From Gemmata sp. (lineage in GTDB: Bacteria; Planctomycetota; Planctomycetia; Gemmatales; Gemmataceae): a stretch of 64,000 nucleotides of DNA. A program made the position numbers and the translations under genes. Positions within the stretch are counted from its first letter, which is position 1, and each line of letters opens with the position of its first letter. Location: positions 44,230-108,229 of the forward strand of contig JANWYJ010000008.1 of assembly GCA_025055115.1 (NCBI GenBank), in the 5' to 3' direction. Of this stretch, positions 3,277 to 21,896 are shown one piece after another. The notes beneath the pieces were generated by a model. That model had not been told where the DNA came from. It ran no database searches and saw only the letters and a program-made list of their open reading frames with translations.

Positions 3277-3687
3277 GTGTTGGGTTTTTCCATGCGCCAC
3301 ATCATTGCGGGTCTCATTCTGCTGGCACTTTTTGTGGTGCTGGTGGGTAGCCGGTTTCAAGCCGCCGATGGCGACAAACTGCGGGCGGTTTCCCAACTCG
3401 TGGTGGCCAAGCTGCAGAAGAGTTTGCCGCCGACGCTCAATCTTCGCGCACCTGTTGCGGTTATCTGTCAGGAACTTCCTCAACAGCCGGCTGAGGCTGT
3501 GCGTGCCCGCTTGGCGAGCGATCAACGCTTTGTCGGTATCGTGTTTGCGGTCACGGCGGAAGGCTCCGTCGTCACCCTGCGCGGAATTGTTCCCGACACA
3601 GCGACCCGACATCTTGCGGTGAGCGTCGCTCAGAACACGATCGGCGTGGAACACGTGATTGATGAACTGGCAGTTCCGGCAGAATGA
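3277..3687 (+). CDS. BON domain-containing membrane-anchored protein
   Basis: N-terminal TM/signal segment (IIAGLILLALFVVLVG). The C-terminal segment FVGIVFAVTAEGSVVTLRGIVPDTATRHLAVSVAQNTIGVEHVIDEL is BON-like. Start is GTG 3277 or ATG 3292. Confidence 0.65.
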   Translation: MLGFSMRHIIAGLILLALFVVLVGSRFQAADGDKLRAVSQLVVAKLQKSLPPTLNLRAPVAVICQELPQQPAEAVRARLASDQRFVGIVFAVTAEGSVVTLRGIVPDTATRHLAVSVAQNTIGVEHVIDELAVPAE

Positions 3688-4691
3688 GGGGAACGGTCGT
3701 TCGTTCCCCGCGCGATCTTACCCCTGACTTCAGCTCCAAGAATACCATGACGCCAATGACCGCGGAGAGTGCAGCACCGCCACCGGTCTCCGACCCGACC
3801 GGCTACGAATTGGGGATTCTCGAACGCCGTTTGCTCCCCAGCGACGATTTCCTCGCTCTCTGGGACGCGATTCTCATTGATCCCGTGATCAAAGATCGCC
3901 TCTTGGCCCAAGCGCTACTGAATTTCACGATTCGGCCCACGGTCGATCGTTCGCGCTTGCCCCTGCACGGCCTGATTCTTCTGGTCGGTCCGCCGGGAAC
4001 CGGGAAAACGTCGTTGGCGCGGGGCTTGGCGGCCATGACCGCAGCGCGGATGCCCCACTTGGGGCCGTTTCAGTATCTCGAAGTGGACCCGCATGATGTG
4101 GCCAACGCCGGCTTAGGGCAACGGCAGAAGGCCGTGACGCAGTTATTGGGAGCCACCATCGCCCGCTATGCGCGGCAGCGGCCGACGATTGTTTTGCTCG
4201 ATGAAGTGGAAACGCTGGCTGTGGCCCGGTCCGGGTTGAGTCTGGATGTCAACCCGATCGACATTCACCGCGCAACCGATGCCCTGTTGGCCCAACTGGA
4301 TGTCCTTGCGGCCCATACCCCGCAGTTGCTGTTCGTAGCGACCAGTAACTTTCCGGAAGCGATCGACGAGGCGTTTTTGTCGCGCAGTGATCTGTTGGTC
4401 ACTATCGAGCGTCCGTCGGCGGAAGCATGCCGCACGATTTTCTTCGACACCCTTCAGGCCCTGGCGGATCACTACCCGGCTATTCGCGGGCTGCTCAATA
4501 GCCCGGAGATTGAAAGTGCGGCGGCGATCTGCCGCGATCTCGACGGTCGGCAGATTCGCAAGCTGGTTCTGGCGGCTTGTACCTTGCGGCATGAGACCGC
4601 CTTGGACCCCAACACGGTACAGGCAGCGGATTTTCTCGAAGCTCTGCAACGCGGCAAGGAAGAGCACCGCAACCTCAAGGAGCGGCGTTGA
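3684..4691 (+). CDS. AAA+ ATPase, TRIP13/Pch2-like
   Basis: Walker A LLVGPPGTGKTS and Walker B IVLLDEVE are present. The surrounding layout (WDAILIDPVIKDRLL...GPPGTGKTSLARGLA...DEVETLAVAR...VATSNFPEAIDEAFLSRSD) resembles TRIP13/Pch2 as I recall it. The ATG overlaps the BON stop (ATGA). Confidence 0.8.
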   Translation: MRGTVVRSPRDLTPDFSSKNTMTPMTAESAAPPPVSDPTGYELGILERRLLPSDDFLALWDAILIDPVIKDRLLAQALLNFTIRPTVDRSRLPLHGLILLVGPPGTGKTSLARGLAAMTAARMPHLGPFQYLEVDPHDVANAGLGQRQKAVTQLLGATIARYARQRPTIVLLDEVETLAVARSGLSLDVNPIDIHRATDALLAQLDVLAAHTPQLLFVATSNFPEAIDEAFLSRSDLLVTIERPSAEACRTIFFDTLQALADHYPAIRGLLNSPEIESAAAICRDLDGRQIRKLVLAACTLRHETALDPNTVQAADFLEALQRGKEEHRNLKERR

Positions 4692-4993: not shown

Positions 4994-6631
4994 TTAGTAG
5001 AGGTCGTCGTAGTTACCGCCGGCGGCGCCTTTCTTTTCTTCCTTCTTTTGCTCCTCGGCGATGAGCGCGTCGGAGGTCAGAAGTAGCGTTGCAACGCTGG
5101 CAGCGTTTTGCAGGGCACTGCGGACGACTTTGGTGGGGTCGATGATTCCGCGTTTCATCAGGTCGGTGTATTCGCCACTGCGGGCATCGTAGCCGAAGTT
5201 CTTGTCGTTGTTGGCTAGCACTTCGTTGATGACCACGTTGCCATCTTCGCCAGCGTTTTCGACGATTTGCTTGATCGGTGCCCGGCAGGCGCGGACGATG
5301 ATGTTGTAACCGATCTGTTCATCGTCGGTGAGGTCGCTGCTGGGTTTGAGGCCTTGGCTGGCCCGCAGCAGGGCGATACCACCACCGGGCAGAATGCCTT
5401 CTTGGTGCGCGGCTTTGGTGGCGTGCATCGCGTCCTCGACGCGCATCTTCTTTTCCTTCACTTCGCTTTCGGTAGCCCCGCCGACATTGATCTTGGCCAC
5501 CCCGCCGGAGAGCTTGGCGATCCGTTCGCTGAGTTTTTCTTTGTCGTAATCGCTGGTGCTCTTTTCCAATTCCTTTTGGATACTGGCAATGCGGGCTTTG
5601 ATGGCGTCTTTCTTACCGCCACCTTCGATGATGGTGGTGTTTTCCTTATCGACCTTGATCTTCTTGGCTTTGCCGAGTTGATCGAGGGTGACGGTTTCGA
5701 GTTTCAGGCCCAAATCTTCGAAGATCGCTTCGCCGCCGGTCAGAATGGCGATGTCTTGCAGCATGGCTTTGCGGCGGTCGCCGTAGCCGGGGGCCTTCAC
5801 CGCGCACACCTTCACCTGGTAGTTCGACTTGATGACGTTGACGACCAACAGGGCCAGGGCTTCGCCATCCACTTCTTCGGCAATGATCAGAAGCGGCTTG
5901 CCTTCGCGAACGACTTTCTCCAGAAGCGGCAGAATGTCGCGGGCTGCGCTGATCTTCTTCTCGTAGACGAGGACGTAGGCATCTTCCAGGATGCATTCCA
6001 TCGTCTCCGGGTTATTGATGAAATATGGCGACAGATAGCCCCGGTCGAACTGCATCCCTTCGACGAATTCGTAGGTGGTTTCGAGGCTTTTGCCTTCTTC
6101 CACCGTGATGACGCCATCTTTGCCGACTTTGTCCATCGCTTCGGCCAGCTTGCGGCCAATGTCAGCATCGCCGTTGGCGGCGACGGTGGCGACGTGTTCC
6201 AAATCTTGCTTGCCTTTGACCGCAATGCTCATTTCCTTGAGCTTGGCGACGATATCTTCAACGGCTTTGTCCATGCCGCGTTTCATCAGCATGGGGTTGG
6301 TACCCGCGACCACCGCTTTCAGCCCTTCGTTGAAGATGGCTTCGGCCAACACAGTGGCGGTGGTGGTGCCGTCGCCCGCGACATCGGAGGTCTTGGAGGC
6401 GACTTCCTTGACCATGGCCGCGCCCATGTTCTCATAATGGTCGGGCAGTTGAATTTCCTTGGCCACGGTAACACCGTCTTTGGTCACTGTCGGGCTGCCG
6501 AACGATTTTTGGATGATGACGTTACGGCCTTTCGGTCCCAGTGTGACCTTGACGGCCTTGGCCAGTTTGCTGATCCCGCGTTTGATGGCATCGCGGGCTT
6601 CTTGGTCGAACGCAATTTGCTTGGCGCTCAT
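4994..6631 (-). CDS. groEL: Chaperonin GroEL (copy 1)
   Basis: 545 aa with classic GroEL sequence ([12 protein letters not shown]..., [23 protein letters not shown]). The tail ...[13 protein letters not shown] lacks the GGM repeat. Confidence 0.97.
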
Positions 6632-6684
6632 TCCTGATCCTCGTCTGGAGTGATTAGCGGATGGTGTTTTGGGGGATGCGATGA

Positions 6685-6978
6685 TTATTCAATGACGCAC
6701 AATACGTCGCCTTCGTGCATCAGCAGCAGTTCGTCGCCGGTGGCACGGTCTTTGAATTCATCGCCGGCCCATGAGGTGAACAGCACCTTGTCGCCCACCT
6801 TCAGTTGTAAGGGGGTTCGGGTGCCGTCCTTTTGCAGCTTGCCAGGCCCGACGGCCAGGACGGTGCCGCGCTGGGGTTTGTTTTTGGCCGTATCGGGCAG
6901 CAGAATGCCTCCCGCGGTTTTGGCTTCCGCGGCTTCGCGACGAACCACAATCCGGTCGCCGATTGGTTTCAGACCCAT
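6685..6978 (-). CDS. groES: Co-chaperonin GroES (copy 1)
   Basis: [14 protein letters not shown]...[10 protein letters not shown]...GPG is typical GroES. GGAG lies 8 nt upstream of the ATG at 6978. The longer ORF start at 7029 falls inside a promoter motif. Confidence 0.95.
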
Positions 6979-7028
6979 GACAACTCCGTTGGTGCCAAGG
7001 GAACTTCGATACTCGCGGTCTGTTGCCA

Positions 7029-7044
7029 TGCAAGTCGCGTGCCC
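7029..7044 (-). promoter_or_regulatory. Sigma-54 type -24/-12 promoter candidate for groES-groEL copy 1
   Basis: The minus strand reads GGGCACGcgacTTGCA, i.e. GGCACG-N4-TTGCA against the consensus TGGCACG-N4-TTGCW. It sits about 50 nt upstream of the GroES ATG. Confidence 0.6.
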
Positions 7045-7239
7045 GGCTGCGAAAAGTGAATTAAGTTATGACTGAATAAGGACTTGTGGAAATATATCCT
7101 CGGAGCTGCCGAGCGTAATTCTGTCAGGATGACCCGATGGCCGACGGCCACGACTGCCGCTTTGGCAGGGTTCCTTCTTCGTCCGCTGGGTGGCCTCGTT
7201 GGGCCACATCGCGAAATTGTTGAATGCCAACGTAGTGGC

Positions 7240-8010
7240 TTACCGCAAGTTCCGTAAGGCCCGTGTGCAGATGCGTGTGGTGGCCGCGGTGGGGGATTCT
7301 TTCTGCCAGCGTGCGCACAGTTGCCGTACCCAGTGCGGCTGGCTTTTGGCGGCGTCGTTGAGCCAATTGGCCACTGCATCTTGAACGTAGGGGGCTGGGT
7401 CAGACTTCAGTGGTTCGAGAAGGGGTAAGGCCAGTTGCGGGTTGGCTTTCAGGGCTTCGATGTGGGCACACCACACGCCGCGTGGTCGCAGCGATTCCAC
7501 CGCGAAGCGACGCAGAGAGGCTGAGGGTGAAGCCGTCCACGTGGTCAGGAGTTTGACGGCATAGGGCACATTGGCTGCTAGGTGGGGGCGGAGGGCCAGC
7601 CAGGCCCACTCACGCACGGCGAAATGGTGATCGTCGGCCAGGGGGCGAATGAGATGCAACCGGGCTGGCAGCTTCAATTTCGGGGCACGACCGACGACAT
7701 AACACGCCCAGCCGCGGACCGTGTCGGCGGGATGTTCGGCCACTTCGGCGAGCCGGTCGAGGGTGAGATGGCGCAGTAACAGTTCACCAACTGTTTCCAT
7801 ACGCCGGGTGATGCCAGCACCGGCCATTTCCCGCACCAGGGTGATCGCTTCGGGGGGAATATCGGGCACTGCGGCGGCCAGCAGAGTGGCGAAGTCGATG
7901 GCCAGGCTTTCGGCCAGTGTCGCCGTCGACACCGTTCCAGCATTGAGTTGGGCGAGTAACTCGGGCGAAATGTCCGCCCGACGTGTCGCCCCTTTGCGCG
8001 CTTCCGTCAT
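7240..8010 (-). CDS. DNA alkylation repair protein (AlkC/AlkD-like HEAT-repeat family)
   Basis: 256 aa. The patterns HFAVREWAWLALRPHL, LRRFAVESLRPRGVW and YVQDAVANWLNDAAK fit the DNA alkylation repair enzyme family. Confidence 0.7.
   Translation of the reverse strand: MTEARKGATRRADISPELLAQLNAGTVSTATLAESLAIDFATLLAAAVPDIPPEAITLVREMAGAGITRRMETVGELLLRHLTLDRLAEVAEHPADTVRGWACYVVGRAPKLKLPARLHLIRPLADDHHFAVREWAWLALRPHLAANVPYAVKLLTTWTASPSASLRRFAVESLRPRGVWCAHIEALKANPQLALPLLEPLKSDPAPYVQDAVANWLNDAAKSQPHWVRQLCARWQKESPTAATTRICTRALRNLR

Positions 8011-19997: not shown

Positions 19998-21896
<1,899 letters not shown>

Follow-up and report, generated by a model that had tools for sequence, protein, structure and literature searches.

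Heat-shock genes are, in the textbook scheme, under the control of sigma-32 or of the HrcA repressor, and to our knowledge Planctomycetes have neither. Sigma-54 promoters have come up elsewhere in front of genes of this kind. For example, groESL3 of Bradyrhizobium japonicum is reportedly NifA- and sigma-54-dependent (work ascribed to Fischer et al., 1993), and in Myxococcus xanthus lonD, a heat-shock gene, is said to be switched on through its sigma-54 promoter by the HsfB/HsfA two-component system (Ueki and Inouye, 2002). In Chlamydia, a member of the same superphylum, a chaperone operon has a sigma-54 promoter whose activator is an NtrC-type regulator with a kinase (AtoS/AtoC; 2020 work). 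In Flavobacterium psychrophilum, the sigma-54 motif SM4 has been found at the mapped starts of groES-groEL, dnaK, grpE-dnaJ, htpG, lon, and clpB (PMC9723704). For Planctomycetia and Bacteroidota, a PSSM survey (PLoS One 2025; PMC12316311) reports that the GroEL, GroES, GrpE, DnaJ, DnaK, and IbpA groups are enriched for sigma-54 promoters, as are, in Planctomycetia, the Clp/Lon ATPases. Orthologous chaperone clusters are heat-induced in Rhodopirellula baltica (PMC2754498), and heat induction is documented only for that other order, Pirellulales. Francke et al. (2011) is silent on planctomycetes and on chaperonins (PMC3162934), and no planctomycete map of transcription starts was found in the literature searched.

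Here, we describe the DNA upstream of the first groES-groEL copy (groES1-groEL1) in a species of Gemmata (Gemmataceae), from a 4.93 Mb assembly that is 98% complete. The stretch of contig analyzed, called the window below, is 64,000 nt long, and coordinates given without a contig name are positions within it. We conclude that positions 7029-7044 are very probably an enhancer-dependent sigma-54 promoter transcribing groES1-groEL1, and as such a member of a kind already known, in this phylum only by prediction.

The -24/-12 core upstream of groES1

The operon and the elements next to its start are as follows:

6685-6978, minus strand: groES copy 1, 97 aa (Pfam Cpn10, E 5.9e-31)
4994-6631, minus strand: groEL copy 1, 545 aa (Pfam Cpn60_TCP1, E 1.6e-79)
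7029-7044, minus strand: sigma-54 -24/-12 core GGGCACGcgacTTGCA (direct reading, PWM score 15.1, conservation in relatives)
6984-6987, minus strand: Shine-Dalgarno sequence GGAG, 5 nt before the ATG (direct reading; kept before the ATG in relatives)
7016-7020, minus strand: predicted transcription start, expected near 7018 (standard sigma-54 geometry)

groEL1 is co-oriented with groES1 and starts 53 nt after it, and its orthologues are present in 30 of 30 relatives with 71-89% identity. Upstream of the promoter lies a HEAT-repeat or DNA-alkylation-repair-like gene (7240-8010, minus strand). Beside the operon is a 336-aa AAA+ gene (3684-4691), which was rejected as a sigma-54 activator in a domain search.

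Read directly on the minus strand, positions 7044 to 7029 give GGGCACGCGACTTGCA. This agrees with the consensus TGGCACG-N4-TTGCW at 15 of 16 positions, the sole mismatch being the first T, which is G here and G or C in most Gemmata copies. The two key dinucleotides, GG at 7043/7042 and GC at 7031/7030, are exactly 10 nt apart, and 50 nt lie between the end of the 16-mer and the groES ATG (6978-6976, minus strand). A preliminary description of this DNA had claimed a sigma-54-type motif with canonical spacing about 50 nt upstream of the ATG at 6978, and had taken it for the promoter of groES-groEL; its measurements hold, and geometry, machinery, and conservation all agree with a predicted promoter of this class. 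It had also favored a short GroES because the ATG of a longer ORF (114 aa, 6685-7029) falls within the -12 element. That ORF does open at an ATG within TTGCATGG, and since relatives have TTGCATAT or TTGCAGTG in its place and do not keep the ATG, the short start is taken as correct. In the standard geometry of sigma-54 promoters, transcription begins about 12 nt downstream of the C of the -12 element, which would place the start in the groES1 leader near 7018.

Short motifs of this sort do occur by chance, and on the window alone such a reading has something to be said for it: three matches with at most one mismatch are found against 0.84 expected, a count that is not significant by itself (6 of 100 shuffles also reach three). 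Two of the three lie about 50 nt upstream of chaperonin starts. Across the genome the picture is sharper. Using a sigma-54 PWM that is approximate, being built from consensus frequencies and not from a published matrix, the score of the groES1 core is reached by only 59 sites on both strands of the 4.93 Mb assembly, so that a 150-nt region upstream of a gene would be expected to hold about 0.0009 of them. Of the extended word GGCACGC-N3-TTGCATGG the genome has exactly three copies, and two of these are groE promoters. Given the conservation and regulon results presented below, which rule it out, we give a chance match virtually no weight.

The remaining matches deserve a brief mention. The third match in the window, TGGCACGGTCTTTGAA at 6741-6756 on the plus strand, lies antisense within groES and was rejected as a promoter; we judge it a chance match because it falls in coding sequence, runs opposite to the gene, and reads GA at -12. 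The third copy of the extended word is on another contig (C46:33652-33669, minus strand), and a 636-aa ORF begins 45 nt downstream of it; judged by eye, the N-terminal residues of this ORF resemble MurQ (N-acetylmuramic acid 6-phosphate etherase). No palindrome of the chaperone type described below was seen at this copy, which points to a different activator for this putative sigma-54 promoter.

The genome has the machinery for such promoters. An intact rpoN (535 aa, C31:1998-3602) encodes the AID, CBD, and DBD Pfam domains, and there are at least 11 genes for sigma-54 activator ATPases, counted as 11 strong PF00158 matches with the GAFTGA-type loop, so that both components whose presence the preliminary description wanted confirmed are in place. 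The textbook alternatives were also looked for. No HrcA was found in the genome, and the best match to the RpoH model TIGR02392 scores 163 bits against a cut-off of 323. The preliminary description had seen no CIRCE-like element in the window, and this extends to the whole genome: searching 4.9 Mb for TTAGCACTC-N9-GAGTGCTAA gave one word with three mismatches and one with four, which is chance level, and neither is by a chaperone gene. groES1 belongs neither to the HrcA/CIRCE-controlled groESL class nor, judged by the lack of an RpoH-level match, to the sigma-32 (RpoH) promoter class. The better of the two CIRCE-like words (three mismatches, C66:78759-78785) adjoins the gene of a PspF-like activator of 379 aa; with no HrcA encoded and some two words of this quality expected by chance, it is probably meaningless.

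Conservation of the core and an upstream palindrome

Orthologous groES1-groEL1, dnaK, and groEL-groES-groEL-dnaJ-grpE loci (the last called op2 below) were collected from 30 relatives, drawn from two families within the order. In each, the 300 nt upstream of the gene were scored with the approximate sigma-54 matrix at a threshold of 13 or more:

groES1 upstream set: forward strand at or above 13 in 26 of 28, reverse strand in 0 of 28
op2 upstream set: forward strand at or above 13 in 24 of 30, reverse strand in none
dnaK upstream set: forward strand at or above 13 in 26 of 29, reverse strand in none

The loci missed for op2 are truncated or belong to the wrong paralogue. When the upstream regions of the three sets together were shuffled, 12 of 1740 reached the threshold (<1%). 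In alignments anchored on the GG, the core stands out as near-invariant columns amid diverged upstream DNA. Further sampling of Gemmataceae gave the same picture, with 62 of 68 genomes scoring at least 13 upstream of groES, including Gemmata algarum, Gemmata sp. IIL30, Limnoglobus roseus, and Zavarzinella formosa. In these 62, 30-106 nt separate the site from the groES ATG (40-55 nt in most), and the other six have slightly weaker versions at 33-67 nt. The preliminary description had proposed that the promoter reading be dropped should the motif not be conserved upstream of orthologous groES genes; as the motif is kept there, that refutation fails.

These data also bear on the possibility that GGCAC-N5-TTGC instead serves a different sigma factor, or is bound as an operator by a DNA-binding protein other than sigma-54. 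Support for use of the site by sigma-54 is indirect, the first T of the consensus is usually absent, and at -12 TTGC is replaced by TTGA or TTTG in some related promoters. However, sigma-54 is the only known class that fits the two invariant dinucleotides, their exact spacing, the lack of reverse-strand hits (0 of 28), and the distance from core to start codon. The same holds for an enhancer 75-145 nt away and for the linked gene of an NtrC-type activator (both described below). In addition, the same motif class has been mapped to transcription starts on groESL in Flavobacterium (PMC9723704). We therefore consider an operator or foreign sigma target very improbable, and a site that would be used by sigma-54 remains our reading.

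The anchored alignments show a second conserved element, a 15-bp palindrome CTGCCA-N3-TGGCAG at fixed gaps from the core. Together with the other elements of the groES1 spacer and the corresponding twin promoter of op2, the features are as follows:

7154-7168, no strand: distal enhancer-type palindrome CTGCCAAAGCGGCAG, one mismatch, 109 nt upstream of the core
7121-7135, minus strand: second, decayed palindrome GGGTCATCCTGACAG, gap about 75 nt (anchored alignment and gap table)
7099-7113, minus strand: dyad CTCGGCAGCTCCGAG of the preliminary description, a 5-bp stem with a partly T-rich tail, weakly terminator-like as a hairpin
7062-7086, minus strand: proximal dyad CAAGT-N15-ACTTa (conserved alignment columns)
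21731-21746, minus strand: twin sigma-54 core cGGCACGccgcTTGCA, preceding op2
21821-21835, no strand: palindrome CTGCCACTCTGTCAG of the twin promoter, gap of 74 nt to the twin core

The distal palindrome of groES1 occurs in both families of the order, and 53 instances of it among the 68 Gemmataceae lie 106-110 nt from the core. The gap-75 copy has four mismatches in this genome; most relatives have two, reading cCGCAAtccTGGCAG. Overall, the palindrome-core gaps are about 75 and 108 nt for groES1, 74-78 nt for op2 (in all 26 relatives carrying the op2 palindrome), and about 97 and 143 nt for dnaK. The 109 nt measured here lie within the range of about 70-150 nt at which an upstream activator site of a sigma-54 promoter is sought.

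The preliminary description had placed an IHF or activator site at the dyad near 7099-7113. The dyad does exist, but it is lineage-specific, being absent from aligned relatives and even from the nearest one (99% identical GroEL), and because it is not conserved we rejected it as an enhancer; the conserved palindrome is the one at 7154-7168. The 7099-7113 dyad may be a weak terminator of the upstream HEAT-repeat gene. The proximal dyad, on the other hand, is conserved and reads cGCAAGTc-N~15-cACTTcg in relatives, in which similar dyads of the type (c)GCAAGT-N13-15-ACTTGC(g) (CAAGT...CTTGCG) also lie 20-45 nt upstream of the op2 and dnaK cores. It stands between enhancer and core, in the place of a bending protein or a second regulator. 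Two genes of the HU/IHF family are present in the genome; the dyad is unlikely to be a classical IHF site because it is palindromic. No Rfam element was found in 6500-7400.

GroEL and DnaK are needed at all times, and this constant need implies either an activator that is always partly active or a second, housekeeping promoter. The second option amounts to a sigma-54 promoter that is real but accessory, providing a stress boost to basal transcription from a sigma-70-family promoter somewhere in the 260-nt spacer. In favor of this, all three groEL genes and dnaK bear the sigma-54 architecture, which means that some basal route must exist, and the conserved proximal dyad at 7062-7086 has no assigned function. 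Against it, no sigma-70-type consensus was found in 6600-7300, a weak test as it used E. coli hexamers and a planctomycete housekeeping promoter could be missed, and the spacer is conserved only in the palindromes, the proximal dyad, and the -24/-12 core, with nothing else conserved. We regard this as a serious, though on balance doubtful, alternative to a sigma-54 promoter as the main route into groES1-groEL1.

A predicted chaperone regulon and its candidate activator

Five promoters in this genome combine a palindrome (two mismatches or fewer) with a sigma-54 site that follows at a distance of 74-120 nt, and these define the predicted regulon:

Promoter 1: groES1-groEL1
Promoter 2: the groEL-groES-groEL-dnaJ-grpE cluster (op2)
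Promoter 3: dnaK
Promoter 4: hsp20 (C50:~1600), with an exact palindrome and a -12 element reading TTGAA
Promoter 5: a gene for a 156-aa receiver-only response regulator, then groES3 (C65:100000-101027, minus strand)

Promoter 5 has the palindrome CTGTCAGCGTGGCAG and the sigma-54 site cGGCACcgcttTTGCA with a gap of 120 nt, and groES3 directly follows the receiver-only gene. The receiver-only protein could be a feedback element of the regulon. In three other sampled loci, a GroES gene lies 450-570 nt downstream of a composite promoter. Some promoters keep TGGCAC at -24 and have TTGA, TTTGA, or TTTGT at -12; besides hsp20 these are dnaK loci of other families (L228, L230, L231, L234, and L235).

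Across the phylum, an exact composite pattern (TGCCA-N3-YGNCA-N95-125-GGCAY-N5-TTGC) was searched in 201 sampled genomes and gave 66 matches in 53 of them, versus two for a reversed control. Directly downstream of the composite promoter, 28 of 30 sampled loci have a chaperone or receiver-only gene (DnaK 7, GroEL 6, receiver-only 6, GroES 4, Hsp20 4, and ClpB 1). Because the same two-part architecture stands on op2, dnaK, hsp20, and the receiver gene with groES3, the groES1 promoter would be a member of a folding-stress regulon, and with chaperone genes behind the composite pattern phylum-wide, it would be one copy of a phylum-wide scheme of chaperone control. Its conserved sigma-54 site before chaperone genes places groES1 in a predicted Planctomycetota sigma-54 chaperone regulon.

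On this architecture, the mechanism would run as follows. Sigma-54 RNA polymerase would bind GG(7043/7042)-N10-GC(7031/7030) as a closed complex, while an oligomer of an ATP-hydrolyzing enhancer-binding protein would sit upstream on CTGCCA-N3-TGGCAG at a distance of about 110 nt and, in the ancestral arrangement, on a further copy about 75 nt away. The enhancer-binding protein would loop over and open the closed complex, perhaps aided by the conserved dyad in between, and transcription from near 7018 would yield a leader of about 40 nt with the GGAG ribosome-binding site. The inducing signal would presumably be heat or folding stress, and the regulon would stand in for sigma-32 and HrcA/CIRCE in this lineage.

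Which of the activators serves the promoter is a question to which synteny speaks. A candidate pair of kinase and activator is encoded on contig C53 (11061-14245, minus strand). The activator (C53:11061-12506) is an NtrC-type response regulator of REC-AAA+-HTH composition. The kinase combines HAMP, HisKA, and HATPase domains with a Tll0287-like sensor domain, in which CVDCH (CxxCH) is taken to be a c-type haem-binding motif. An activator gene lies downstream of groESL1 in two sister-family genomes and upstream of dnaK in an unrelated family; these chaperone-linked activators are closest to the C53 protein (55% and 49% identity, versus 42-43% for the next paralogue). Of 201 genomes from the phylum, 189 gave an orthologue of the C53 protein, and 8 of 29 sampled orthologue loci, from at least five families, have the order kinase, activator, palindromes with a TGGCAC promoter, and dnaK. 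In at least six Gemmata genomes, the kinase-activator pair is just beyond the chaperone cluster. The contact loop of the C53 activator reads GAYTGS and not GAFTGA, which is probably a tolerated variant, because F and Y alternate among orthologues within the clade. In the present genome, the pair sits on a contig other than that of groES1 and has no palindrome upstream. Neither a palindrome nor a sigma-54 site was found before any of the 11 activator genes of this genome, and lacking such a palindrome, the activator cannot be picked out through autoregulation. The most likely activator of the groES1 promoter would be the C53 NtrC-type regulator with its adjacent kinase, an assignment made by synteny only.

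The architecture could also be as described and be served by another activator, such as the PspF-like protein on contig C66 (76927-78067), which might be held by chaperones and freed by titration with unfolded proteins. This protein of 379 aa consists of AAA+ and HTH domains only, with no sensory domain, and has the canonical GAFTGA; chaperone titration is an established mode of control for sigma-32 and HrcA, and linkage of an activator gene to a chaperone promoter is not seen in this genome. However, no synteny of the C66 protein with chaperone genes was seen, whereas every chaperone-linked activator elsewhere is closest to C53 by the identities given above, and dnaK is directly downstream in the 8 of 29 C53 orthologue loci. 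We consider another activator improbable and retain the C53 pair as the candidate.

More broadly, and as a tentative proposal that falls somewhat short of probable, one conserved pair of kinase and NtrC-type regulator, binding CTGCCA-N3-TGGCAG, might replace sigma-32 and HrcA as the master switch of folding stress in Planctomycetota, and perhaps in the wider PVC group. The kinase would be a membrane protein with an outward-facing Tll0287-like domain bearing the CxxCH haem motif, and the receiver-only protein encoded with groES3 would provide feedback. If this is true, cytoplasmic chaperones would follow a signal sensed outside the cytoplasm (envelope or redox), rather than the titration of free chaperones.

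Comparison with known systems

Taken together, groES1, its twin, and three further promoters show the full enhancer-dependent architecture of a predicted sigma-54 promoter, conserved on core genes of the chaperone set. From the comparison of relatives come three testable objects, namely the -24/-12 core, the palindrome of 15 bp with its fixed spacing, and the candidate pair of kinase and activator.

The preliminary description had cited a groESL paralogue of Bradyrhizobium as the one precedent. It stands as a case of a sigma-54-dependent groESL paralogue, and the likeness is that one of several groESL paralogues is behind a -24/-12 promoter; it is not the sole case, since such promoters have been mapped in Flavobacterium psychrophilum (PMC9723704) and, in the 2025 survey, predicted in Planctomycetota (PMC12316311). 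The resemblance, with the Gemmata and the Bradyrhizobium operon each being a groESL paralogue behind a -24/-12 promoter, might suggest symbiosis or nitrogen control of the NifA-dependent groESL3 kind. But the NifA site TGT-N10-ACA is absent from the groES1 spacer (7045-7240), the genome has no true nifH (its best match is a 29-bit P-loop hit), and its predicted partners in regulation are dnaK, hsp20, and the remaining groE genes, not nif genes. groES1 is not a member of the NifA-dependent groESL class, and we hold control of that kind to be extremely unlikely. While Bradyrhizobium groESL3 is co-regulated with nitrogen fixation through NifA sites, the partners of groES1 are heat-shock genes, in keeping with a predicted chaperone regulon.

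For the activator, the nearest parallels differ in turn. The HsfB/HsfA system of Myxococcus, a kinase and an NtrC-type activator acting on a heat-inducible quality-control gene, corresponds to our working model in its arrangement; it differs in having a single target gene and in belonging to another phylum. Chlamydia is alike by type of regulator, but it keeps HrcA/CIRCE and a housekeeping promoter in tandem, whereas the Gemmata genome has neither HrcA nor CIRCE.

For the promoter itself, Flavobacterium has the -24/-12 motif on the same protein-quality-control genes, in a lineage that is also without the textbook heat-shock regulators (PMC9723704). It is of another phylum, its starts were measured, and one of its sigma-54 promoters, not that of groESL, was mutagenized (PMC9723704); the likeness covers the core motif and the gene set. 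Within the phylum, the groES1 site is one of the promoters of the kind predicted in the 2025 survey, which, in the part available to us, is statistical and names no enhancer, activator, or individual Gemmata promoter (PMC12316311). The general idea is thus not new, having been predicted in 2025 and mapped in flavobacteria. Compared with what that part of the survey contains, our study adds the palindrome, its fixed spacing, and the candidate kinase-activator pair, and its value lies in this precise anatomy and in naming a candidate regulator.
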